Below, in pieces: positions 1,113 to 53,876 of a stretch of 64,000 bases of DNA (the stretch's first letter is position 1; each line of letters opens with the position of its first letter). The DNA is from Antedon mediterranea (Eukaryota; Animalia; Echinodermata): assembly GCF_964355755.1 (NCBI RefSeq), contig NC_092672.1, forward strand, positions 18,241,237-18,305,236. The letters are read 5' to 3'. A program made the position numbers and the translations under genes. Under the pieces are notes generated by a model. It did no database searches. It was not told where the DNA came from and worked only from the letters and a program-made list of their open reading frames with translations.

Positions 1113-1649
<537 letters not shown>

Positions 1650-2197: not shown

Positions 2198-3144
2198 TAC
2201 AGCAAAGTACATGTTTATAAGACCTTATACATTCAATTAATTTTAAACACAGTAAAATGGATGAATGTTTGGAAATTAATTATTCAATTCCCAAATACGG
2301 GAGTTTCCTACTAATCATTTTTTAATATAAAGCTTAAGTTACATCAACATTTCAGTATAGTATAAAACTAGTCAACAGTTTTGTATCTTGATATTAATTT
2401 TGTAATTAAATTTGCAATGATGACGCAATGTGCAATTAAGTTTGACCAAATCACAGAACAACATTACTCTATAGGTCTTTTACTTTAATAATATTTCATC
2501 CGCATACTTCAGTTAAGTATTTACATATGAGCCTAAACCTTAGTACTATATATATGAAAGTAATGAAAATATTTACTATAAAGAATCAATTTCATGTTTG
2601 TATGTACAGTATTATTGGTTTATTGATGTGTGCTAATGTAATGTGACACACTGTAGTGTCTGCACATGTATTATGTAATGTGACACACTAGGTTTATTAC
2701 TGTAGTGTCTGCACATGTATTTTCTAAACTGCAAATTGTTTTTAGTTTGTATTGTGAAACTTTTTAGCGTTGTATACTATAGATAATTGTTATGTATGTA
2801 TTATATACTTATATATATATATATATATTATATATCAGCAAAAACAATGCTGAAAACTATGGACCAACAGATAGCTAATTCTACCTACACAGCAGGTCTG
2901 AGAAACACAAATAAAGCAGACAGAAGACGGAATGCAGTATACAAACAATTTATTGCTTTTACAATTTTAAATACATTTTTTTTACTAATTATTCTTTTAC
3001 TTAATTTTATTTTATATTACTATTTAAAAAAGATTATGTACAAATCAAACCCAATTTAAGTTAAAAATATTGAATACTGTACCATCTCTGTAATGAAAAC
3101 ATGTTAATACAAATAATGATTAATGAAAGATTTACTGAAAAGAT

Positions 3145-3338
3145 TAAAGCGTGGTTCCCACTAGGACGCAACACAATGATGCATTGACGCAAAGTGCTAT
3201 ATTGCATAATAGTGGCAACTGATGATGCAACAGCGTTGCAAACATTGCAGGTTTGATTTCATGCAGGTGGGGAAAACACAATTATTGGAAGGGTATTTTC
3301 TTATGTTGCGTTACGTCGCTAGTGGGAACCACGCTTTA
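3145..3338. mobile_element. Short MITE, PIF/Harbinger-like
   Basis: Terminal inverted repeats taaagcgtggttcccactag ... ctagtgggaaccacgcttta; non-coding. Confidence 0.75.
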
Positions 3339-3714
3339 TGTATGATTCCCAATAATAGAAAATAGCATTGTAAAACTCCATTTGAAAAATAAAGTAAATG
3401 ATGTATGTAATATAAAATGTTTGATTTTGTGACTTGTAAAAGGATGCACCATGCATGTCAGTAATAGCACCCTATATTTCAACAATTTTCTCATCTCATT
3501 ATTATAATCAAAATAGTACTGTCTGTAAAATCACAATTGAGATAATATCTGTGCGATGAAATATTTTTTATTACTACAGGCACAACATGAACTGCAGGAA
3601 AGATTGTTATCTTTCCTAGTGTTTGTTAATGACATACATTTTGCATCGAACTGTAGTGTAGAGAGGAATGAATAGTAAATTTAAAAACATCATGTATACA
3701 ATAAACAGTTGCAA

Positions 3715-6700
3715 TTAAAGGAGCCCAGGGCCATGAGAATTTGTCACCAATAAAGGAACTTGACGAACATGTTCCATTAAAAGGATATGATTGGCTGCCT
3801 GCCTTCCAGTTGATACAGAACGTTCCATGAGACTTGACGGGTACGAAGTATGAAGCCAATCACCAGCAAAACTTAAGTTTGGGATGCCACATCTATTAGG
3901 GAATGTTACATTAGGCCTAAACTGTTCTGTGTTGATTTTAAACGATGGAAAATTATCTTCAAATGAATTAACATGATATGCAAGCATAGTGAAATTCTCA
4001 CTGAATATTTCAGGATATATCATTTTAACAGTTGGTTGGATTATTTCCCACACTTTATCATCTGGTGTATCCTTTTCCTTCCATGTATACAGATGAAATT
4101 CCAGGACAGATCCATTGGTTTTATTAGCCCACATTGCAAAGTGTTCTTCCAACAGATGATACTGCGCTATAAGGTTGACTGGTGTATAATCTGGCGTTTC
4201 AAGAATATCTGGACGATTGTGAGGTTGTTTGTCAAACCAGGCGCGGAATATCTTGTACCTTGGTGCTAATGGTAACTTGCCAACTTTGGACTGTAAACAT
4301 TGTAGACTAACTCCAATTTTTGAATCTGGTGAATAGTTCTTTTGTGTAGTATTAATAATTCTTTGAAGGCCAACCAGATTTGTAGCTAATATCACATGAT
4401 CAAACATCTCTTTAGTTTCAGTTGAAATTACTTTGCCATTTGATGAATTGAAATATAAAGACTTCACAGTTGAATTTGTTTCAATTCTGATAAATAAATG
4501 ATAAAATGACAATGACAATTTGCACAATAATTGAATACAAATTAACTAAACTATACCTATACACATATTTTATCTATATTACTTAAGAGATAGTCTAAAC
4601 TGACAGTAAAATGAATAAATATTTGATAATAATGAGAATAAAATCTGCCACAACCAAGACGGGTTGATATGCAGATGTCCTACCATTAGACCTCTAGTTT
4701 TTAAATTTACAAATGGATTCCCAAAGAGATACTTTTGTATAAACTAACTAGTTGTCTAATGTACCTGACACCATTTTCTTGTAAAACTTTTTTCCAAGGA
4801 CCTATTACTGCATCTTGATAATTCTTGGTTGTAACTTCCCTTCCATCAGCCTAAAAATAAAATAAAGATATTTAATATGTAATTGGTCCATTTAAACAAA
4901 CCAAATTTGTATTGTATAATTTTAATTAAAAAAATTAGAAGAAAGAATTACAGTATCCTCTTTCTATATTATACATAATCAATGGATTTTACCAAAATAT
5001 AGGTGAACTTGATTATGTTCACATTAACTACCTGTTCAAGAGCAGTTGCTGACATGCAGTTTGATTTATTTTTTATTTTCTTATCTTAACTTGCAATTGA
5101 GAAGTGACATATCAATCTAGAGTTATATTTACTTTATTAAAATATTATTAAAATAGAGATTTTATAGATGGATACAGTTTTTTAATTACTGCATTTAAAT
5201 ACAGACAAATAATTAGCACCAACCTGTGGTTCACTTAGGAAATACATCTGCATATATGTGAGCATTTCAGCTGCACTGATTGTATGCCTTTCATTCAACG
5301 TTACAGACAGAGCAGGTCGCATTATAATGCTATAAAATGCCTCATCAACATGCTTTTCTTTTGCCCAGTCATCTTAAGTAATAAAATAATAAAATAATAT
5401 AAAATTGAACAGTCATTAAAATAATTAGTTTAGTTTAGTATAGCACAAATGTACAATATTAGTATCAGCAACACAATATTTCTGTTAACAGATTAACAAA
5501 TAAAATTTATTTTCTAAAAAACTGATTCCAACGCTAAAAAAAACTATGACAACCAGCCAGTCCAACGACTCTATAGCCCCTTTCTCACAGAGCTGTGTGC
5601 CAGGAATCGGGAATATACCATTACCATGCCGGTATGGTTTTCTGTAAGAACGGATCGTCTTGACATCTGCTTTAGACCTAGTAATATTACTAGGGATATT
5701 CCCCGCAATGCCAGACGGGCATTCTGTGAGAACGTAATATTTAATTCCCCGTCGCGGCTTTGACACCTTTCGTCGCCTTGTAAATTGTACAGCATTCTAT
5801 TGGTGTTTTACAGATTGCTGATGATGGCTAATTAATTGCTGTACCTGTATAATATATGCACAATATACTGTACATAGCATGTATTGCATAAATATGCTAT
5901 AAAGGAAGATAATAATCTGTAACTTAAAATTCGCCGCAATATATCACTAGACAAAAATACTAACAATAAAAGACGCCCTCAATAATTATTTTGTCAGAGA
6001 CTTTTTATTGGCCGAATATGCCCGACTCCTTTCTCACAGAAAGCCGGTATATACCGGTTATATTTCCGGCACAATAGTCCGATGAGAATGGGTATATACC
6101 GGTAACGATACCGGCACGACGCCAGCATACTACCGGTATATTGCAGGCACATCTGTGAGAAAGGGGCTTATGAAATATATTTCATAGTGAAATCAAATGT
6201 TGATATAAAGTTTGCGGTACACCACATAGTTCTGAAAAGAAAGTTTCTAGAGAAGGGAGGAAAACTTTCTATATTAATCAACCAATAAGGACTCGGTTCT
6301 GTACTAAAAAATAACCAAAAGTACTTACCAAGAGATATATTTGCATATTTCTCAAAAATAGTATCATAATTGTAATACAATAAATCTGGCAAGGACAATG
6401 AGGACTCGATTGCATTAGTCATCTTTAGATTGGGACTGCGAAAAATGATACCTATGAATAAAATTAAAATGCTAAATTTAAAAAATATCAGGAATGAATA
6501 TAAGAATGCCTTATACCATCAAAAAGTGTAATTCTCACATTTTTTCATTCTCTGCAATTGATTTTTTTTTTTCAATATTAAACCAGGCCATTCCTTGTCT
6601 TGAATGTATTTGATTATGATAAAAAGAAAACAATCTCTCTCTCACCCGAGGTGTCTTAAGCCCACACTAGCCTGCTAACAGTGGTAATGTACAAACATCA

Positions 6701-8601
6701 TAGGCCTATGAGCTTTACATTGTCTTGTTGCTGAATTAATTATCTTAATTTTTTTGGCAGAATCCGTTAATATAATATATATCCCATCCAAACCGTTAAG
6801 AAGGAATCAAAATTAGTTCAATAGGCCTATATACAATTTAATTTTACAAAAAATGTACAGAAGTTTGTGACCTTAAAATACAAAAAAAATGTAATTAATT
6901 TCACCAGGCACTTTAAAGTTGCCTTTAAATTTTTAACCTTTTAAATGTGTTTTTGTATGTGTATGCTATAAAATTGTTCTTATGTACATCCACTTAAAAA
7001 TATCATTCCATTATTTGTCTTTTGAGAAATATTTGGACAGAGATTTGTAATGTTAGGATATACAGTATGTCTGAACTCACCAAGTAGATTTAACGGGAAT
7101 GGCCCTTCACTATATATTTCCTCTGGTAAATAATTTCTAAAAACATAGTCGACCGCCTTCCACTCTCTAAAATTTCCATCGATTCCAAGTCTTTTGCGAA
7201 TATCTTTAAACTGATGGTAGTTGTAAAACCAGGCTATAATATAAAATGTCCATATACAACTTTATCCTTCTTAACAACACTGCATGTGGAGCATGTACTG
7301 TACCTTCTTAAAATGTAATACATTAATATAATTATTAAGCATTATTCAGTAAAAAAATAATCAAATCACTGTCAAAATAGAACTTTTTCTTAATTTAATT
7401 TTCATGATGTAATTTCATAAAGTTTATTTTGAATTGTACGTTCCAAGAAAAAGTATTACAAAAATAATGACCAAAGCACCAACAACTCATAAATAATGTC
7501 CTACCATGAAAGGCATGTTCAACAGGCCATGTTTGATTTAATCGCTCAATGTTTTTTGTATGAAGACGTCCACCAAGTACCAAATCCTTCTCACAAATTG
7601 TCACATTAAATCCTCTCTCGGAAAGTTCCAAGGCTGCTGAGAGACTTGCAAGACCACCTCCTATAATATAAAATACCCTATTTATAGAGATCTACCAATA
7701 CTTTTATAATTTATATTGCCTGCCTGGATGATCACACAACACTGAATATACTGACAATAAAGCTAGTGGTGTGACACCTTTCCCTTTAATTCACTATGTT
7801 CATTGGGACATACAGATTTCCTAGTTAAATATTGTTTCCAAATTATTAAATAAAAATCTGAACTTAAAACTGTTCATCCGAATTTTTAACAAACTACAAG
7901 TTGAAACTAGAAAGGCACTCCGAGAGTGGATACCTCCGCCGACTGTAAAAAAATTCTCCTACATAAGATTTCTCCGGTAAAAGAAAAAAATATATATATA
8001 TGTGTGTGCGTGTCTTAATGCTGTTTGTGATTTACGCTAATTTCACTACAAGCATGTGTATGCGAGTTTGGTGTAATGGTTATGTAACAAGCCTTTCAAT
8101 TAACAATAGCTTCAGTTGACCAACAATAGAACAGCAATGCGAAAATCAAACGAGTGAATTTGAATTTCAGTTTACTTGTTACTTTAAGACTGCTCGCCGG
8201 CTTTTGAAAAAATTCTGTCCTATCTTTTAACACTAGCAGGTCTGAAAAGTATACTAAAAAAGTGGTCCAGAATTGGGGGGACCATGGTCCCAAAATTTAA
8301 TGGAATGGTCCATGACAATATATCTATCTGTATATTCATTTTGATAAAGATCTTGTATTTAATTTTTGAGTAATCCTGCTAACAAACAAACACACGCTAC
8401 CGATTACATATACCTCCTTGGCGGAGGTAAATTTTATCAAATTGTCAAAATCAAAATGTGTGTTATTGAATACTGTACCTGCTATAAGAACTGTCCTAGA
8501 GACTCCAGCTGGAAGCTTTGGAGCATCAGAAGGATTTACAGGTGGAATATCAACAGGTGGCTTTGGGAATGCTATGCAACATCCAACAAACAACAAACAC
8601 C
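3715..8601 (-). CDS. crtU: CrtU-like FAD-dependent carotenoid desaturase (carotenoid phi-ring/isorenieratene synthase family). Exons 8601-8479, 7660-7505, 7233-7081, 6451-6329, 5372-5224, 4850-4765, 4486-3715; the start-codon exon is not located
   Basis: Seven GT-AG exons with compatible phases (1,1,1,1,0,2) give an uninterrupted 520-codon frame plus stop. Motifs: VLIAGGGLASLSAALELSERGFNVTICEK..LGGR (Rossmann), VEHAFHAWFYNY, SAAEML..MQMYFL, FDHVILAT, LAPRYKIFRAWFD, GSVLEFHLY, and RPNV...PNLSFAGDW...YPSSLMERSVSTGRQAAN, which is characteristic of the CrtU/CruE group. Confidence 0.88.
5575..6168. mobile_element. Harbinger-like MITE in a crtU-like intron
   Basis: TIR agcccctttctcacaga / tctgtgagaaaggggct; 3-bp TSD TAT at 5572-5574 and 6169-6171; internal ccgg-rich subrepeats. 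Confidence 0.85.
7905..8432 (-). mobile_element. Helentron-associated (HINE-type) non-autonomous element in an intron
   Basis: The minus strand starts ttacctccgccaaggaggt...gtgtgtttgtttgttagcagg (palindrome plus GTTT microsatellite). The subterminal acctccgcc motif recurs at ~7932. Confidence 0.6.
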
Positions 8602-10637
8602 CTGAAAAATTTCACGTTACAAATTAATTCTTATATTCCACCGCACTATGGAACGCATTTTGATTATTATGAATTTCATAATGTGATATAAATGAAATGC
8701 ATTGATGATATGAATTTCAATTTCATGGTGCGATCTGAATGAAATGCTTTGGAGGGAACAATTTTTGTTTTGGTTTAAATAATTTCACTTTTTTCATTCA
8801 AAGCATTTTATTAACATGGCAACAAAATTTGTACCATCTATGCATTTCATTCACATCCAGCAAAATTCATATCACCAATGCATTTCAATAAACACGTCAT
8901 GAAATTCATATCACCAATGCATTTCAATAAACACGTCATGAAATTCATATCATCGTGTGTGTTCCATACAACTGCAAGCATACATTATGTTAGGACAAGC
9001 AAATCCTAATAGTTTGGCAATACGGAATTGTAATTAGAGAATGGTGTCAACCGTAAAACACACACAGATTTCATTTGTCATCACTGACGCTGGCTAGCCT
9101 AGGCCCTCTTAATCCATATTGGTCCCAATCATCCTATTTGTTTGGCCTGATCATCTTAGCTCAGGGCACAAGAGTCTTGTGTTCGATATCATAATAATCC
9201 CGTTTTATTTTGGTCTTGATAAAATTAACATCCGGTATTCTGTATGGAACATCACACTGATACGTTTTTGCAGTATATAAGAAATCCACTAATAAAGGCT
9301 TATGGCTCAGTTTAACAGATAATATTACTTGAAAATGACCGGTGACTGGTTATTGACCTAAGTACATAATTTAATAAAACTTGGTATATTTTATATTAAT
9401 AATTATAACAACATAAATTAAAAAATATTTGTCGTAGGGAGCAAATTTTGGTGTCAGATTGTTTGCAATATTTATTTATATACTTGTCATAGTGCAACAT
9501 TTTTTCCAAAAGTGAACGGAACATTTTTTTTCATGTATTAGCATTTGACCCACTTTCTAAATAACGACATGCCGTAGAAAGTTGAAACTTAGGCGCACAT
9601 TGTTTATAATAATAGATCTTATATACTTATATTCACTCTAATGGATTGTAATATTTGAAAAATAACTTGTGTGAAGAAGTTCCAATTTTATTTGACCAAA
9701 TAAATGCATCGGTAACGCCTCACAGTTGACTGCTCAATACAATAGACACGGAAGAACACATACTTTACTCTTTTTTTCTCAATTTTTTTTTCTCCTTATG
9801 TTAGAATAATTGTTTTTCTCCAGATTAATAAGGGGGCGGAGGGTGCGTGTGTCCCCCTCCCCCTCTGGATTTGCCACTGGTCAAACGCATTCGATTATGA
9901 AATTGTGATATGCCGAGAAATTTACTTTTAACTTCAATTTTATCAGTTTCTGAAAGAATTAAGCTTTGAAATTTGTAATATACCATTAATAATCAATTCC
10001 AAGCAGGTGGCTGCTCTCTGGTGGTAGGATTTGATTTGTTGCTCTGGTAGGTGGTCTAGTAGGGCCTAACCCTAGCCTAGAGGCCTGGCTAGCTACACGC
10101 GGCTACATACATGCCTCGCATTTTTTTGAAATATTTAATACCTCACAAATTTTCGGCATGCCTCGAATAACGCAGCTTCGCACTTGACCGATCATCCTAT
10201 TTGTTGAGCCCGATCGTCTTACAACTTTGTTGGCCCGTTCGTGGTCGATTCCGATGAATTGTCCGTTCCGATCGCGCGCCTGTTCACTAGGCCTAGGCTT
10301 ATCCTGACTTGATGTCTAGCCTACCTAGGCTAGGCCTACTAGCCTAGGCCTAGTTAGGCCCTATATTTTTAATTTCTAAAAATCAAGTGATGTGTCGTAA
10401 TAATAACTAGGCCTAGGCTAGTGCATATTATCTATTAAATCAGACAATCATAGGGCCTACCATAAATGATAGAAATACTCGTAGCAACAGTGCTATGCAG
10501 GTGACCCTCCATCTCTCTAATAGGGCCTAGATCTCTTACACTACCACAGTTAGTAGACTATAGTAGGCCTAGACGCTCTATCAAAGAAGTTAGTGTGTGA
10601 TCAAAGATCAGTGTGATCAAAGAATATATATCACAAG

Positions 10638-12684
10638 GGGTAGTAACAAAGTGCGAGGCAGCGAGGCACGCGAGGCAGGGAAGGCATGCGAGGCAAGTCA
10701 GAAATTTATGCGAGGCATCGTTTTACCATCATCAAAAAATGCGAGGCATCATTTTATCATTTCTCAAAATTGCAAGGCAGGAAATCACCGAAATTGAAGT
10801 AGCCTAGGCCTAGGCCCGCTAGGCTAGTTTCCTTTTGCACCTGCCTTGTATTTTAACCAACTTTATCCTGAATACCACAGCTTAGAATTAGTAGGCCTAC
10901 TTTAATGAAGAAAAATCACATAAAAGTAACAATAAATCCATTAAATTGGTGATTTTACAGACGTTGTTTTTCTCGCATTTCGCACACTCAATGTTCAATA
11001 TTTTGGTTTCTATGGAACGCCAAAAGAGCAAAATTAATTAGAGGGCTAAAAACTCTGTGGAATCCATTTATATTTAACGCATTATTTGGTGAAAATCAAG
11101 TACAATTTCAATAGATTTTGTCACTGTCAGTAATGAAAAATGTTACTGTTGATAATGTACACGGTTTCGTTAACATTTTAAAGAATAAAATAGAAAAATT
11201 CATCATAATATCCTTAGTAGGATGTCCTAGGTCTAGACTAGGTAGTGATGTTGATTTAGGATCGATTATTATTCTTTGAAAACAGAACAGTATCAGCAGT
11301 AACATATTACAGCATTTTTATTGACAAATTAACAAATATATTGAAATAAAACGTGTTTTTCACCAATAAATGCATGAGAAATTGACGCATTCCACTGAGT
11401 TTTAGTCCTCTATTATCGTTGCTCTTTTGGCGCTCCATAGAAACAAAAATATTGAACATTGAATAAGTGAAATTCGCGAACAGTGTGCGAGAAACACGCC
11501 TGTAAAATCATTAATTTAAGGATTTATTTGTTACTTTTTATGTGATTCTTTCATTAAAGTACTCATGAGGTATACTTCTAAGGTGTGGTATTCACACGAT
11601 AAAGTTAGTTATCAAATTTGGAGTAAAAATACAAGCGAAGGAAACTAGCGCCAGGTTTATTAATACGTACATGGACAACAATAAATAAAAATCGTTCGTA
11701 ATATACCTAGCTTACTAAAACAGGAATAGTGTATCATTATTAAATATTACACCAATTATTATTATATCAAAATTGATTAAATTATTTTCTACATAGGCCT
11801 CTTATCTAGGTTAGGGCTAAGCATATTAGCTAAAGTTTAATTTTAGGCCTAGTATTACAATTGTCGGACGTAAATCTTTTTTCACACGCGCTCCAGAATT
11901 CTGTCGCAATTTTTTTCTTTGCGGCATGTTATTGGATCGCCATATCAGTTACCTTTTATTCACCGCCAGTTATTGAACTTGTCCTGGCAATCGCTGTTCA
12001 CCTTATTTGCGAGAGAGGTACACCACACGTGTTGTTCCTAGAGAATGGAATGTCAAAAATGTCTTTGGCACGCCGCTCAGAGAGAAGTCTGTGCGTTGCT
12101 GCTGAAACCACGTGCTATAGGAGGGGAATGCACCACAATCCTCTGAGCTGAGGGCTGAATCATTCCGCTACCTGCTAAATAGTAAAGAGGGATTTTCCAT
12201 CTCTCGGGTCTACCGGATCTAGGCGCAGGGGTGTGACAAAATATTATTTTCACTCTGCTATGTTCGAGAGACATGTGAGTGAACACGCTCGAAATGCCAA
12301 CAAACATTGCAGTCATTTGATGAGTGTGTCGCTTTAACAATTATTGTTTATCGAAAGTTAGAGACTGTCGTTTAGATTTTTGAACCGTAGTTTGGGCACT
12401 TTTGACACGATATGACTTGAATGAAAAAACAATCGTTACATAAAAATAAACAACATGATGAGTGTATACACGAATCTATTTAGATACGCTTGTATCGATT
12501 GATTATTAGGCCTATAATATAGCATAATAGCACGTTAAGATATGCCTCGCACCTTTTTGAAATTGTAAACTATATGCCACGCATGCCTCGCACTTTTAGA
12601 AATGATAAAATGATGCCTCGCACAAATATTTGGCATGCCGCGCATGCCTCGCTTGCCTCGCTGCCTCGCACTTTGTCAACACTC
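10638..12684. mobile_element. Non-autonomous Mutator(MULE)-like TIR element with 9-bp TSD
   Basis: TATCACAAG flanks both ends (10629-10637, 12685-12693). Long imperfect TIRs are built of gcgaggca repeats (acaaagtgcgaggcagcgaggca ... tgcctcgctgcctcgcactttgt). An orphan right-end copy lies at ~10110-10190. Confidence 0.8.
10824..11648. repeat. Internal fold-back: ~245-bp imperfect inverted repeat arms (10824-11067 / 11388-11648)
   Basis: For example ttctatggaacgccaaaagagcaa vs ttgctcttttggcgctccatagaa, and aatcacataaaagtaac vs gttactttttatgtgatt. Confidence 0.8.
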
Positions 12685-14046
12685 TATCACAAGAATGAGT
12701 ATTCCGCGATTTTTGCATGAGAAATTTGTAACAGAGAGCTCCAGTGAGTGATGCCCGCCCTCATAAGGGCGGATGTATACATACTAAATATGCTTGATTT
12801 AATAGATATTATACATGTCACATTAAATAGAATTATGATAATAGTTTTTGCAATTGTAAACTATTTTATAATACATATAGTGTACATTCACTTTTACAGA
12901 CAATTATTTACTAACATGCTAAGTTAGTTCACAAAAAAGGCCTAACACAGCAACACCAAAAATCAATGAATCTGTAGGAACTTCACACACATATTTGCGT
13001 GTGTGCGCTCAACGCGTAAAGTTATGCAAATTGCTGTTGTAAATATAGCGAACGCGCAACGAGCGATCTCTCTCTCTCTGCGTCAAGTTTTCAACGAGAA
13101 GACATCGACATTTTTATGAGCAAACCATTGCGAGTTTTAATACAAGTTTTACGATAATAATTAGTTGTCCTAATTATTAGCACTATTACATTTTGATATT
13201 TAGCGTTTTAACTTTACATATTTTACTACGTGTTACTGTATGTTATCGTGTTTCAATTATTGTACCGTTGTATATATTATTGTCCTGAACTAGTCTAGCC
13301 TATTAACCTTACACTGCGCACGTACGTACGCGCTTCGTGTGGATATGTGGTTTCTACACTCCGTATAGTTTATTTACTTCGAGCCTAGGATACTTCCAGC
13401 TTTGGACATCGTTTGACTGCTACAATACTCCATTACCGTATTCTAAATAGGGTAAGTAAAGACCGAATTACTTATTCCCTAAAAATCGTTACTCAGCACG
13501 GCCTATTCTTTACCATTGCCGTGTACTACTCTACGCCCGGTAAATTAAGTATTGTTTTTATGATATAAATTAGTATAAAATACATGTTATTAATAGGACA
13601 AAATGTTAAATGTTATTAACATTTATTTGTTTTACCAGAAACAAGTTAAATATAGGAATATTATTAAACAATCCTTCGTGAAAACGCGTAAACACCAACA
13701 CGCCCGGTCACGCTATCGTAGCGCCCGGTTGATAAAGCAAACTGTTTATACGGCAGTTTTTACTAAATAAATTGCATAAAACGAACAATTAAATATCCAA
13801 ATAGTATTTAACATGATGTTGGCATGTAGTTGATAACATTTTTTATCATGAAAATACTACCGGTGGTCTAGCCTTGGATTATTGAAATCGTCACAAAGTT
13901 GTATACATCCCAGATACATCCACACTTATGGCGGCGCCCTACCACATGGACAATATTACTGTTACAGGGAAAATCGCGGATTACTCATTCTTGTGATATA
14001 TATTCTTTGGTGTGATCATCAAAGATCAAAGTTGAGAGCGCAAGAT

Positions 14047-47205: not shown

Positions 47206-50200
47206 TGTTGTAAAGATTTATGTCGTCCGTTGAGGGCGCATATTATAATATGCTTCGAGTATCGGACGATGGTGTGCGTGCACCCGTTCGCAGTTAATGT
47301 CATATAAACATGCCTGTAGCGTTCCAATCACCATATTATTATGTAAATTATAGTGTTTTGGTGAGTTCTGAAATATTATTAACCTTATTACTTGTTTTTA
47401 TATAAACCAGGAATCCTGGTAATAGGCTGTAATTGTTGATAAAAAGATTTTAAAAGTTATATTTTAGTCAGTTTAGGTGACGTCTCTAGGCCGACGCACG
47501 TTGTTTTCATTGTTTTGTACTCTGCGAGAGCCTCTCTCGCTCGGACAGTTTGGGTCACGTGACCCGTATGCTAATATTGCCGGTACTATTGTAACTTATC
47601 CGTTTCCATTTATTTTGTATTTGTAGTGATGAATGAACACAAGCACACACGCACACGCACACACCCACATTGCCAAATAGCCACATTGACACCTTGTCAA
47701 TTTGCAACCTCATCACCTATACTGTGGAGGATTACCTATTAAAAGATACCTTGAGTTTTACACGCCGACTACTTTGTTTCATTCTGTCTGTAAATCTACC
47801 CACTTACTACCGAACCAGATAAAACAGTACATACATTTCTACATGGTCCCTCGAGCCGGATAAAAATGGCGGAGGAATTGAAACAACTGAAAATCAACAG
47901 ACGTAATGCTAAAGGAAATTTAACCAGACAAGGCAACGCACTGAGGAGGATGCTTGCATTGGAGAACCCAGATTTGGAAGAGATTAAAAGGAAGGCAGAT
48001 TTATTAGAGGACCTCTTCGCCGTAGTAGAACTAAAGCATAACGAATTAGTCGAACATGTGGAGGGCGAGGAAGACTACAACACAGAAGAGAAATGGATGC
48101 AGGATTGCCAGGACCAGTTCTTGATTGAAAAGGAACAGACAAGAAACAGTATTAGATCTTTAGAAAAGAAACTAAATGAGACTGTTGTTTTAGTAAATGA
48201 CAGTAATGTAAATAATAGTAATGTTATTAATGATGAAGTTTCAAGTAATCAAAATGATATCCATGATGATAATGTTAGTGATGTTAATTTAAGTGATCCC
48301 GCTATTGAAGTTGATAATGTTAACGATAATAATGTCATTAACCCTAATTTATCCACAGCCAGCAGTAGTTCATTGGACACAAACGCCTTCAACTGGGAAG
48401 GCTTGTTACGGGCAATTGCTCTACCCCGCAGCCAACCGAAAAAATTCAGAGGAGACCCGCTACGGTACCATGCATTCATTACAGCATACAAGAGCACCGT
48501 TTCTCAAGTCCCAGATGATGGTGTCAAGTTACAACATCTACTCTCATTATGTGAGGGTGCTGCATATTCTTCAATACAGTATTGTGTCCTTAAACCAGCC
48601 GAAGAAGGCTACATAGCAGCCATTAAAAAGCTAAAAGAGAAGTTTGGGGACCCCAACATAATAACCAAGGCCTGGACTGATAAAATACTGAAGCGAGAGA
48701 CAGTTACCCTCGATACACTCGGAGATTTTGCAGATGACCTAGGAAACTGCTACGGAACCCTAGAAGCTTTGGGGAAACTCTCGGAACTGGATACCATGGA
48801 GGGATTATCCAAAGTTGTGCAGATTTTACCGACATTCCTCCGAAACAAGTGGAAAGACGTCAATTTCAAGTTGAAAGAGAACCATACCACCGCTACACTC
48901 AAGCATCTACTTGAATTTGTTCAGAAGGCTAGGGACAAAGAGGAAGATCCAGTATTTGGAAGGGTGCTAACCGCTAAGAAACCAGAAAAGGATAAACCTA
49001 ACCAAAGGGATCACCAAAGAAATCACCGACCACCAACAACTATGACCCTTACAGATACGAAAGACAGCAAGAAACTACCTCGGATGTTCTGTCCTTACTG
49101 TAACGGAAACGAGCATTTCCTTGGGGGCTGCAAAAGCTTTAGAGAACTAAGCAAATCCCAGATGAAGGATTGGATCACTAATAACAATCGCTGTAAACAT
49201 TGCGCTAGAAAACATGTTACCACCGAATGTACTCTTCGGAAGGGTTGTAAGATGTGCTCTGAACTGCATCTTACAGTTTTGCACGACACCCTGTCACCGG
49301 CATCTCAACAGTCCACTCCTTCCAATCCAGCAGCGGCAACCAACCAACTCTACAGTCTGTGTCAACAGTACAAGCCCAGAGACGTATTCCTGAAAATCGT
49401 CCCGGTAACATTATACAGTCCTACCAGCCAAGTTGATACCTACGCTGTTTTAGATGGTGGGTCGATGAGAACCATGCTGCTCACTGATGGAATGAATAAA
49501 CTACACATACAGGGCCATGAAGACAGCATTGTTCTGAAAACTGTGGAACACGGAACAACCACTGTTCCTGGACGGAGTGTAAACGTACAAATATCGGCAA
49601 GAGGCGAGACTCACAACAGATATAACCTTGACGATGCGTTTTCTTCGACCTTGTTAACACTGGGGACCTACTCGTACCCAACAAGAGAGATCAAAGAGAA
49701 CTACAATTACCTGAAAGATGTCCCTTTACCAGAAATAACTGACGCACTTCCTTTAGTCATGATCGGAGCTGACAACGTACATTTGCTTACGCATAGAAGC
49801 CCGATGATACAGCTAGGCATTAACTCTCCAGCAGCAGTACATACAGTGTTTGGATGGACATTGCATGGCCCAGTTCCTATGCCTTTGACCAAGCCACCGG
49901 TCACTGTAACAACCTTCACCCTATGCGAGTCATCACAACTGAAGTCTGATGTTAGAAGGCCTTGGCAGGTGGAAGAACTTCCTCCTAGTAAGGCAGCAAC
50001 TCGTTCTCGACTCGACCAAATGGCAGTGAACAATCTCGACCATTCCACACACCTGATTCAAGTAGATGGAGTGAACCGTTATGAGGTTCCTCTGTTGCGT
50101 GATAACAGCGGTACACGATTCCGAGCTGGTGTTGAGTCGGTGATTCCACACATGAGGAGAACGGAGAGGTGCTACAACCAGAAGCCTGAAAGACGTGAGA

Positions 50201-53200
50201 AACACAACCAATTAATCCAGAAGCTAGTCGACGATAAACTAGTGAAGATTATTACAGCCGAAGAAGCCGAGAAGTCTGAGGAATCGTGGTTCGTCCCTCA
50301 CTATGTTATCGAACAGAAAGGTAAACATAGATTAGTGTTCAATTGCTCCCACGAATTCCAGGGTCTGAACTTGAATAAGCATCTGCTAGCCGGACCTAAT
50401 TTGGGTTCATCTCTCATCGGAGTAATCCTGAGGTTTCGCCAACATGAAGTAGCGATATCTGGCGACATTAAAGCCATGTTCCACCAGGTACGACTAAAAC
50501 CAGAAGACCAATCCCTGTTCCGCTTCATCTGGAGGGATTGTGATGAAACTAAACAACCTACCATCTACCAATGGTTATCTCTGTTATTTGGATCTACCTG
50601 TAGCCCGTGCTGCGCTACTTATCCACTCCAGAAACTAGCTGTAGAGCATGGTGAACAATATCCAGAAGTTAAAAGATCCGTCATGGAGGCCTTTTATGTA
50701 GACAACTGTTTGGATAGCACGAAATCTACAGAAGAAGCTGAAATCCTTGTGCATGACATCAGGACTGTACTGAGCATGGCTGGCTTCAACGTCAGACAGT
50801 GGGCTAGCAATAAACCGGAGGTTTTAAAGGGATTGCCTGAAGAAGCACTCTCATCCTGCACTATATTAGAGTTCCAACAAGACACTAATGAAGCAGAACC
50901 TATGTTGGGTATGCGCTGGGATACTGGATCTGACTCACTTACATACCGCCAGAATCACGATCATCAAGATGTTGTAACAATGCGATATATTTACCGGACA
51001 CTGGCAAGACAATACGACCCCATTGGCTTCTTGGTTCCATTCCTTATTAGGGGCAAGCTTATAGTCCAAGACTTGTGGAATATGGATAACATCGATTGGG
51101 ACAGAGAAATAACTAACTCCGAGATTCGAGCCTCCTGGGTCCAATGGGAAGACGAACTTAAGTACATCGATCAGGTCAACATCTAGAGACGATATCTCAC
51201 ACTTAAGGATGCCACTCACCAGTTACATGTCTTCTGCGATTCTTCCGAAAGAGCTTATGGTGCAGTCGGCTACATCCGCGGAGAGCGAGATGGGAAAGTG
51301 GAAACCGCATTCGTTATAGCCAAATCCAAAGTTGCTCCTAAGAAACAGTTAAGCATGCCAAGATTGGAACTCTGCGCCGCACTGGTTGGTGCGAGACTGA
51401 TGGACTTTATGGAGCAAACCTTGAAGATTCCTATTAGTACGAAGCACCTGTGGAGCGATTCCACAACGGTACTGACGTGGCTCACTTCAGAAACCTGTAG
51501 ATTCAAGGTCTTCGTCGGAACTCGAGTAACAGAAATAAACCACTTAACCAAAGACATGACCTGGCACTATGTGCCTACAAAGCAGAATGTAGCAGATGAT
51601 ATCACAAGAGGTATGTCCTTGGAGGAAGTCGCAAGCGACCACAGGTGGAAATATGGACCGTCCTTTCTAGCTCAGGCTACAGACCACTGGCCAGTGATGC
51701 CCAAACTCAAAGATCAACCTGGTGACACAGAAGTCAAGAAAAGTGTTTTCTGTGGGCTAGTCAATGTTGATGCTACAGATGAGATCAGCCACCTAAAGGA
51801 CTTTGATGCACTGTTGCTCCAGCTCGGCCGGAAGTTTGATGGGGCGGCCCCTCAACAAATTGAGAATGAAGCCTGGAGAATGGTACAACGATGCTGTTTC
51901 CCAGAAGACGTTACAGCACTGAAAACTGGAACCTCACTACCTACAGGTAGTAGACTGAAGCAATTAAGTCCAGAATGGGACAATGACGCTGGTCTTATAA
52001 GAGTAGGTGGACGATTGAGTGAAGCAAATGCTATACAAGAGCAATTGAAGCACCCAATCATTCTTGATCCAAAGCACTACATCACAAAACTCATAATCCG
52101 ACATACCGACGCTAAGTTGCTACATCCTGGACCAGAACGTGTTCTAGCAGACCTGAGAAGGAGATACTGGATTCTCAGAGGCAGAGAAGCTGTTAAAGGA
52201 CAACAACGACTTTGTCAAGAATGTCAGAGGTGGCGAGCAAATCCTACCATTCCTCGGATGAGAGACCTGCCGGCCGCAAGATTACAAATATTCAAACCTG
52301 TTTTCCACTGCACCGGGATCGACTGCTTCGGACCCATGTCTGTGAAAGTTGGACGGAGAACAGAAAAGAGATGGGGAATAGTCTACAAGTGTATGACAGT
52401 TGGCGCCATCCATTTAGAGCTTTTGGAGAGCATGAATACGGAAGCATTCCTGTTGTCGTTTCGCAGATTTGTTGCGCGAAAGGGCCAACCAGCTAAGATT
52501 TTCAGTGATTGTGGAACTAACTTCAAAGGGGGAGACAAAGAACTCAAGTCAGCCTTCGACCTGATGACAGCTGATCTTCGAGACAAACTACGACCGTTTC
52601 AAGTAGAATTCATCTACAATCCTCCTAACGCTCCTCACTTCGGAGGAATATGGGAGAGAGCGGTTAGGAGTGCGAAGACAGCTCTCAGAGTAGCAATAGG
52701 CAACCAGCTAGTTACAGAACCAGTTCTTATGACCCTGCTTATAGAAGTTGAAGGTATACTAAACCCAAAACCACTGGGTTACGTATCAAATGACTCTAAG
52801 GATGTCAACGCGGTTACACCCAACATCCTTCTGATGGGACGGCTAGATCCAGTTATGCCACAGGTGATATACACCGAACATGATCTTTTGACGAAGAAAA
52901 GATGGAGACATAGCCAGGTGCTGATTAACCATTTCTGGAGACACTTTATCAGGCACCACTTGCCGAACCTGCAGGTCAGGCAGAAGTGGTGGAGGGAGTC
53001 GGAGAACTTGCAGGAAGACACGGTCGTCCTTATCATGGACAACCTACTTCCCCGAGGCCAATGGATAATAGGACGTATAACCAAAGTTTTCCCCGGAGAG
53101 GATGGCAGAGTGCGCCCGGCCAAAGTACTCGTTAAGGGCATATGTACGCCCTGTTGTAAAACTGATCAAACTCCCAGAGCTTCAGTAACCGTTCAAGTTT

Positions 53201-53876
53201 TTTTTTTTATTAGATACCTTGTATTTACATGTCTTTATATGATAGTTTACTTTAAATTTAGTGCCTAAATTTAGGGGCGGCTGTTGTAAAGATTTATGTC
53301 GTCCGTTGAGGGCGCATATTATAATATGCTTCGAGTATCGGACGATGGTGTGCGTGCACCCGTTCGCAGTTAATGTCATATAAACATGCCTGTAGCGTTC
53401 CAATCACCATATTATTATGTAAATTATAGTGTTTTGGTGAGTTCTGAAATATTATTAACCTTATTACTTGTTTTTATATAAACCAGGAATCCTGGTAATA
53501 GGCTGTAATTGTTGATAAAAAGATTTTAAAAGTTATATTTTAGTCAGTTTAGGTGACGTCTTCTCTAGGCCGACGCACGTTGTTTTCATTGTTTTGTACT
53601 CTGCGAGAGCCTCTCTCTCTATTGTAACTTATCCGTTTCCATTTATTTTGTATTTGTAGTGATGAATGAACACAAGCACACACGCACACGCACACACCCA
53701 CATTGCCAAATAGCCACATTGACACCTTGTCAATTTGCAACCTCATCACCTATACTGTGGAGGATTACCTATTAAAAGATACCTTGAGTTTTACACGCCG
53801 ACTACTTTGTTTCATTCTGTCTGTCATTCTACCCACTTACTACCGAACCAGATAAAACAGTACATACATTTCTACA
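47206..53876 (+). mobile_element. BEL/Pao retrotransposon 4, full-length and nearly intact. LTRs 47206-47843 and 53282-53876; PBS tRNA-Tyr 47844-47860; PPT ~53273-53281
   Basis: TG...CA LTRs are nearly identical apart from a ~46-bp deletion and a 3-bp insertion in the 3' copy; 5-bp TSD AATTG; PBS tggtccctcgagccgga. Confidence 0.97.
47866..53188 (+). CDS. BEL-4 gag-pol polyprotein (gag with three Cys/His knuckles, protease, RT, RNase H, integrase); one in-frame TAG at 51184-51186 and a late frameshift near 53138
   Basis: ORFs 47866-51186 and 51298-53268 share a frame, and the gap reads RRYLTLKDATHQLHVFCDSSERAYG. Motifs CPYC..EHFLGGC, VLDGGS, GDIKAMFHQV, FYVDN, MPRLELCAA, GIDCFGP/SDCGTNF/WER. 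The canonical end YVRPVVKLIKLPELQ* lies in a shifted frame. Confidence 0.9.

Follow-up and report, generated by a model that had tools for sequence, protein, structure and literature searches.

A spliced gene of the feather star Antedon mediterranea encodes a predicted exported flavoenzyme from a clade sister to the carotenoid desaturases CrtU and CruE

Gene structure and genomic surroundings

This study concerns a minus-strand gene in a 64,000-nt stretch of the feather star (crinoid) Antedon mediterranea (contig NC_092672.1, positions 18,241,237 to 18,305,236; hereafter the window, with coordinates counted from its first nucleotide), where it converges on a rabphilin-type gene and is surrounded by mobile elements. 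Eight coding exons splice to 1614 nt with an unbroken frame, and the 537-aa product is identical to a protein that NCBI has automatically named 'carotenoid phi-ring synthase-like [Antedon mediterranea]' (P0001). All seven introns have GT-AG borders, with phases 1, 1, 1, 1, 1, 0 and 2. A first-pass annotation of this DNA had described seven exons with GT-AG introns and an uninterrupted frame of 520 codons. Splicing to P0001 bore out the introns, the frame and the minus strand, and the seven exons do account for 519 residues plus the stop codon, but an eighth, first exon at 10512-10461 had been missed.

The coding part of that first exon (10461..10512, minus strand like all that follow; 52 nt) encodes residues 1-17, that is, the start codon and the first part of a hydrophobic leader. 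It is supported by the matching N terminus of P0001 and by a joint 8600/10460 in contigs of sequencing runs X1 and X2. Exon 2 (8479..8601, residues 18-58) holds the end of the predicted signal peptide, a proline-rich arm and the first strand that binds flavin adenine dinucleotide (FAD), and exon 3 (7505..7660, residues 59-110) holds the FAD dinucleotide motif, in which Ser64 and Ala108 replace the glycines of relatives. The invariant Phe113 and an Asn159 shared with CrtU lie in exon 4 (7081..7233, residues 111-161), which is followed by a helical segment in exon 5 (6329..6451, residues 162-202). Exon 6 (5224..5372, residues 203-252) carries the SAAE motif, with Ala237 and Glu238 shared with CrtU, and the region aligned with Arg300 of phytoene desaturase (PDS). 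After exon 7 (4765..4850, residues 253-280), the coding part of exon 8 (3715..4486) supplies residues 281-537 and the stop codon, including the E410-H412-Y414 strand, P497, the C-terminal FAD motif and a Pfam Amino_oxidase match (7e-14), with no Rieske insert. The 3' untranslated region is placed at 3274..3714 with an AATAAA at 3572; this extent is the reach of the spliced contigs, which end at 3314 (X1) and 3274 (X2) and do not give the true transcript end. Run X1 also has a variant at 4455 that changes Tyr292 to Asn, and two further coding variants (4030 and 7121) are silent.

Five runs were examined, none of which is recorded as RNA. Six of the seven exon joints are listed directly in contigs of X1 and X2, which belong to two studies, and for the seventh the record coordinates of both runs leave exactly 235 nt, the length of exons 6 and 7 together. 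Transcription of the gene is suggested because these contigs are spliced, and they would represent the spliced transcript on which the first-pass annotation had made its reading depend. A processed DNA copy is an unlikely origin for the spliced contigs, as runs X4 and X5 contain the introns and none of the joints. The coding sequence has a GC content of 38% (29% at third codon positions) and the introns 31%. Bacterial contamination was rejected on the introns, the splicing, the animal-type neighbour and the composition, in agreement with the earlier view. The gene is a genuine spliced host gene of the feather star.

The last two coding exons of the convergent gene (1134..1649, plus strand) match the C2B domain of rabphilin-3A/Doc2 in a PDB search (E 1e-10 to 3e-13), as the earlier identification of a rabphilin neighbour had it; Pfam gave no match for these short pieces. 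Intron 5 contains a 594-bp insertion at 5575..6168 (no strand assigned) with 17-bp terminal inverted repeats and high contig depth, which resembles a miniature inverted-repeat transposable element (MITE) and agrees with the intronic MITEs reported before. A second MITE-like element, of 194 bp with perfect 20-bp terminal inverted repeats, lies between the convergent genes at 3145-3338, and contigs of both transcripts enter it (2840-3334 and 3274/3314-4486). The two 3' untranslated regions may therefore overlap there, though these contigs carry no strand information and are interrupted at repeats. Upstream of exon 1, long imperfect inverted-repeat elements of high copy number occupy 10850-11600 and 12685-13998. 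From 15900 to 64000 the window consists, as judged by eye from the open reading frame (ORF) list, mostly of broken frames resembling long terminal repeat retrotransposons (gag/pol, integrase-like) and of fragments resembling long interspersed nuclear elements; one of these elements has long frames at 47794-53268.

Fold, leader and diagnostic residues

Pfam assigned Amino_oxidase to residues 65-516 and also matched NAD_binding_8 in the exon 3 region, and it found no Rieske domain (PF00355) in the protein. The structure model (pLDDT 92.9) is closest among solved folds to rice PDS (PDB 5mog; Z 38.7, root-mean-square deviation 2.1 over 442 residues; next entry 27.8), and rice PDS was also the best Foldseek match (E 2e-30). 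Enzymes of the PPO, MAO, LAAO and CrtI types reach Z values of at most 27.8; MAO, LAAO and LSD1 align mostly at the N-terminal FAD motif and score more than 10 Z units below PDS. As modelled, the protein would thus have the FAD-binding fold of the PDS and zeta-carotene desaturase (ZDS) type to which the CrtU/CruE family belongs, and by fold it appears not to fall with ordinary amine oxidases, a grouping that the first-pass annotation had named as contrary to its view. The four CrtU/CruE motifs listed there are all present. The nearest models in the Atlas are bacterial clusters (TM 0.85-0.89 by query) that are CrtU-type by automatic names, Rieske domains and taxa, two of them being auto-named phi-carotenoid synthase and three carrying a Rieske domain. 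On the NCBIfam models for PDS and ZDS (CrtP/CrtQ) the protein stays below the cut-offs, with 50 bits where 569 are required and 54 where 622 are required.

Residues 1-28 form a hydrophobic leader, with the hydropathy peak at residues 19-29. It is likely a signal peptide cut after Ala28, and entry into the endoplasmic reticulum (ER) and secretory pathway is predicted. The protein has 12 N-glycosylation sequons compared with 3.9 expected, a number reached by none of 2000 shuffles. A hydrophobic leader is also found in most animal and other eukaryote relatives, apparently not in Saitoella, and some echinoderm leaders resemble uncleaved anchors. No signal peptide is evident in the Saitoella members (P0054, P0277), which cluster with a chytrid member that does have a signal peptide.

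Diagnostic alignment columns were defined in this study from 21 CrtU-type and 6 CrtP/Q rows. Nine columns that all three CrtU groups and the clade described below conserve are absent from the six CrtP/Q rows (N159, A237, E238, W400, H412, Y414, P497, N513 and G533), and the crinoid protein has all nine. Phe113 and Pro497 align with PDS Phe162 and Leu538, which are placed at the active centre in the accessible part of PMC5703498, and residues 244-246 lie near PDS Arg300. The same text describes a flavin-only PDS mechanism acting on an acyclic substrate, while CrtU/CruE chemistry includes a methyl shift according to the portion of PMC10604819 consulted. Because PDS manages with flavin only, the extra invariant polar residues would suit added chemistry such as a methyl shift of the CrtU/CruE type.

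Distribution and origin of the family

Database searches found members in 17 named animal species, often with paralogues, comprising crinoids, an ophiuroid, echinoids, asteroids, holothurians, three hemichordates, the brachiopod Lingula, a chiton and a rotifer. Seven other named eukaryotes have members as well: Acrasis, Nannochloropsis, Vitrella, the chytrid Quaeritorhiza, two Saitoella species and the aphelid Amoeboaphelidium. Many matches carry no species name, so these counts are of named species; sponges, cnidarians, arthropods and chordates are missing from the named matches, in searches that are unable to establish absence. Scanning prokaryote genomes recovered 69 loci, of which 60 are close (37-46% identity), in Silvanigrellaceae and Oligoflexales (Bdellovibrionota), Myxococcota, Microthrixaceae-type actinobacteria and Thermoplasmatota. 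The label 'carotenoid phi-ring synthase-like' already stands in automatic annotations (NCBI, JGI). No paper on the eukaryotic members or the clade was found in the open literature; subscription journals and supplements were outside the scope of that search and may hold earlier work. In Holothuria leucospilota, two members with adjacent accession numbers (P0398 and P0406), likely a tandem pair, are wrongly labelled as plastid phytoene and zeta-carotene desaturases.

Four trees were built: a careful 35-row tree, a 102-row FastTree, a quick 63-row tree from which 39 rows had been dropped (long branches and near-duplicates), and a quick mixture-model tree. The outgroup was the CrtP/CrtQ-type genes of a Bacteroidota sample, taken by inference to be green sulfur bacteria, and the trees contain no plant or cyanobacterial PDS/ZDS, MAO or RetSat. 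In the 35-row tree the CrtU/CruE types form one clade (94/86), the new family is its sister (100/99), and the two together are separated from CrtP/CrtQ at 100/100. The sister position was recovered in all four trees, so the family lies beside CrtU/CruE and not inside it. The approximately unbiased (AU) tests used LG+G4 on the 35 rows, with groups defined after inspection of the tree, and rejected a single clade of animals and CrtU (p 0.003). CrtU/CruE are, on these sequences, the nearest characterised relatives of a protein that falls outside their family. The description of the gene as an animal CrtU homologue therefore holds for the affinity but not for membership, and the phylogenetic check proposed with it came out on the CrtU/CruE side as far as the sampled families go.

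Within the new clade, eukaryotes (93/94) separate from prokaryotes (86/93) in the 35-row tree, and the eukaryote clade was also found in the 102-row FastTree (99), the 63-row tree (96) and the mixture-model tree (90). This bears on the suggestion in the first-pass annotation that the gene was acquired horizontally by animals. Such a transfer from a bacterium would fit the very patchy distribution, with the named animals limited to echinoderms, hemichordates, a brachiopod, a chiton and a rotifer, and the 36-47% identity between the crinoid protein and prokaryote members. However, in all four trees the animals group with fungi, the aphelid, a heterolobosean (Acrasis), a stramenopile (Nannochloropsis) and an alveolate (Vitrella), and the AU tests speak against joining animals with prokaryotes (p 0.022) as well as with CrtU; animal monophyly was not rejected (p 0.27). 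Since the eukaryotes group together, an animal-specific transfer is disfavoured, and we regard it as quite improbable. The clade probably entered eukaryotes once and early, from a prokaryote lineage that today is represented in myxobacteria and Bdellovibrionota, and wide loss or some spread between eukaryotes would have followed. On this view neither crinoids nor echinoderms gained the gene themselves. One early entry with many losses is the simplest history, with a root that rests on a distant outgroup.

Gene context and export in prokaryotes

The neighbour scan covered 100 of 175 selected representatives, and in 9 of 60 loci the gene was missed by the ORF caller and its neighbours were not selected. 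The members from Thermoplasmatota lack a twin-arginine leader and in four of five cases adjoin carotenoid-type genes. At L019 the gene immediately precedes those for lycopene cyclase, CrtI and phytoene synthase; at L018, L021 and L023 a small gene of the fatty-acid-hydroxylase family, which we take to be CrtZ-like from its motif, lies directly upstream. All five Thermoplasmatota genomes have crtI, phytoene synthase and lycopene cyclase and so should be able to make cyclic carotenoids. These archaeal members nest within the new clade and are 42-43% identical to the crinoid protein. The Thermoplasmatales cluster at L019:105-8534 continues with a UvdE endonuclease and a photolyase, which suggests a light-protection island and, possibly, aromatic carotenoids in an archaeon.

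Bacterial members mostly carry twin-arginine leaders: of the 56 prokaryote loci that were parsed, 45 show the pattern, two of them apparently false on inspection. Twin-arginine-like leaders occur in 104 of 115 Rieske-type CrtU/CruE proteins (L003:5866-7770, P0279-P0397); the pattern is crude and was used with no shuffled control. Export had been considered as an argument against carotenoid work and was dropped on the strength of these Rieske-type leaders, which imply that such enzymes would aromatise on the outer or luminal membrane face. No such statement was found in the parts of the literature consulted. Work on the outer face seems to be old in the group formed by CrtU/CruE and the new clade. 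In Silvanigrellaceae an AxA site closes the leader, and the FPxPP start that comes next is the same as in the crinoid protein.

Squalene/phytoene synthase is absent from 23 of 50 carrier genomes, and the single-copy control gene uppS is present in 22 of those 23. Carriers lacking phytoene synthase would therefore need an outside substrate, as animals do. Many carrier groups are predators, grazers or parasites of microbes, a lifestyle that fits an enzyme exported to meet a food-derived substrate. Many CrtU-type proteins of 730-800 aa (such as P0083 and P0102) carry a lycopene cyclase fused at the N terminus, an arrangement mentioned for myxobacteria in the available text of PMC9304148.

Proposed function

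We propose that the protein is an exported FAD enzyme of the PDS fold that desaturates the beta-rings of food-derived carotenoids as CrtU and CruE do, a reading by analogy that we hold to be evenly balanced. The carotenoid role is inferred from the nine CrtU-diagnostic residues and from the archaeal linkage to carotenoid genes; carotenoid ring desaturation of some kind is about as likely as not, and full aromatisation by the crinoid enzyme is doubtful. The host enzyme that remodels dietary carotenoids, as first suggested, thus stands as a spliced host gene, with its carotenoid activity a deduction from sequence.

In the proposed mechanism, the leader would direct the protein into the ER, where it may be cut or kept as an anchor, and the protein would be glycosylated and bind FAD. 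Its place of action would be a membrane surface on the luminal or extracellular side (gut, lysosome or lipoprotein), with one end of the carotenoid entering a hydrophobic tunnel as in PDS. The flavin would take a hydride to create a 3,4 double bond, and Glu238, His412 and Tyr414, which are shared with CrtU and absent from CrtP/CrtQ, could steer a second desaturation and a methyl shift to the aryl ring. Quinone or oxygen would reoxidise the flavin without a Rieske domain, as in Streptomyces CrtU.

A number of observations weigh against this proposal. Identity to CrtU/CruE types is only 22-29%, the stem of the new clade is long (0.61), 46 columns are clade-specific and 31 CrtU-conserved columns differ in the clade, several of them non-conservatively (W112, A223, A253, D254 and N385). 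Animal monophyly is unstable, as Vitrella falls inside animals in the 35-row and mixture-model trees, and of 15 animal proteins examined for sequons only 4 show a clear excess (p<0.05). The accessible part of PMC3093257 lists aryl carotenoids for sponges and green sulfur bacteria and does not list echinoderms, and no sponge protein is named among the matches. The pigments that this text gives for echinoderms belong to the keto, acetylenic, reduced-ring and 9-cis types and include no aryl carotenoids. These pigments and the divergent columns would suit an enzyme that acts on carotenoids without aromatising them, forming only 3,4-didehydro rings or carrying out flavin-based isomerisation or hydration of the polyene as a first step in the handling of dietary pigment. 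Such an enzyme would have the same carotenoid links through its fold, the archaeal neighbours and the shared residues. However, the polar residues that separate CrtU from CrtP/Q are all kept, and a Carotenoids Database table (PMC5574413, available in part) lists beta,chi carotenoids for Echinodermata, together with phi,phi carotenoids for Mollusca. Those entries could equally be explained by diet or symbionts. Sponge aryl carotenoids are tied to symbionts in the text consulted of PMC3093257, and aryl carotenoids in animals are attributed to symbionts there and in the accessible part of PMC7395447. We consider the non-aromatising activity unlikely.

Carotenoid-type neighbours occur at archaeal loci only (100 of 175 neighbours), and the bacterial neighbours are unrelated to carotenoids except for a polyprenyl synthetase at L049; no such linkage was seen at the animal locus. 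A carotenoid-oxygenase-family gene is present in only 8 of the 23 genomes without squalene/phytoene synthase and lacking in the other 15. Among NCBIfam models HpnE scored highest (105 bits over residues 55-516; cut-off 283), and no CrtU model was among those listed for the protein. At L005:9600-11270 and 11 related loci, the family gene adjoins a di-haem cytochrome c peroxidase-like gene that weakly resembles the rubber oxygenases RoxA/B/C. The substrate might accordingly be another long hydrophobic isoprenoid or lipid of the prey, such as squalene, a hopanoid or sterol derivative, a prenyl quinone or polyisoprene, which would be oxidised or reduced, with carotenoids confined to the archaeal branch. 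The trees nevertheless join the clade to CrtU, apart from CrtP/Q and other HpnE-model matches, and the carotenoid-linked archaeal members nest inside it. The 12 Rox-like loci belong mostly to one Bdellovibrionota lineage, Silvanigrellaceae-like, so that this neighbour is synteny shared by kin and not independent support. A non-carotenoid substrate therefore appears rather unlikely.

The crinoid copy itself has unusual residues. Ser64 at an FAD-motif glycine is found in 1 of 346 scored homologues, Ala108 at another in 2 of 332, both crinoid, and Gln244 occupies the position of a CrtU His. With a second paralogue in the same species (P0005) that retains the FAD-motif glycines, this could mean that the copy studied here binds FAD poorly, serves as a carotenoid or lipid carrier or is a weakened duplicate, with activity kept by P0005. 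Against this, the frame is intact, spliced contigs exist in two studies, the Anneissia orthologue is 82% identical, the terminal branch is short (0.10-0.12), and a change from Gly to Ser or Ala is small. We find a weakened copy very improbable, and beta-ring desaturation by the exported enzyme remains the preferred reading.

In its furthest form that reading would give eukaryotes, animals included, an aromatic-carotenoid synthase of their own, obtained by an early eukaryote from a predatory bacterial lineage and acting on prey pigments in the secretory pathway; we offer this as a tentative and somewhat unlikely idea. If it were true, aryl carotenoids of echinoderms and molluscs would be host-made. 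In the fossil record aryl carotenoids are interpreted as marks of particular bacteria; predators and grazers that breathe oxygen would then be an unrecognised source of the isorenieratene-type molecules by which anoxic sunlit water is traced. As all five echinoderm classes, hemichordates and some spiralians encode a sister of CrtU in the host genome, a host origin can be tested directly. Even with another function, this would be an unstudied family of exported flavoenzymes linking myxobacteria and Bdellovibrionota with eukaryotes, for which the automatic database label is unproven.

Comparison with known systems

The distribution recalls CarF, the plasmalogen desaturase, a lipid enzyme common to myxobacteria and animals and rare elsewhere in the part of PMC9304148 consulted; only the pattern is alike, as the protein family is unrelated. 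HpnE hydroxysqualene dehydroxylase shares with the crinoid protein the best NCBIfam match, which is a superfamily-level one, because 105 bits fall below the cut-off and CrtP/Q proteins score 236-246 bits on the same model. Plant-type PDS (PDB 5mog) and CrtP/CrtQ provide the closest solved fold and aligned active-centre positions, but they are 20-21% identical and lack the nine CrtU-type residues.

The Rieske-type CrtU/CruE of green sulfur bacteria, Thiodictyon and cyanobacteria, among which the Thiodictyon enzyme for the chi-ring of okenone has been cloned (PMC10604819, available portion), share the core, the diagnostic residues and an export leader followed by a proline-rich arm. They differ in having a Rieske insert and a twin-arginine leader, whereas the crinoid protein has no insert and a predicted ER leader, and identity is 26-29%. 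Streptomyces CrtU, the isorenieratene synthase that forms phi-rings, was represented by a gene of the S. anulatus cluster crtY-crtT-crtU (L001) that was recognised from its context. It belongs to the carotenoid gene cluster of a producer, the actinobacterial rows seen have no export signal, and it is 25% identical to the crinoid protein and in a separate clade. The actinobacterial type P0129 also lacks PF00355, so the Rieske domain is not required for the CrtU family. The crinoid protein and Streptomyces CrtU are alike in the PDS-type fold expected of an FAD desaturase without a Rieske domain, in the nine diagnostic residues and in the four motifs.

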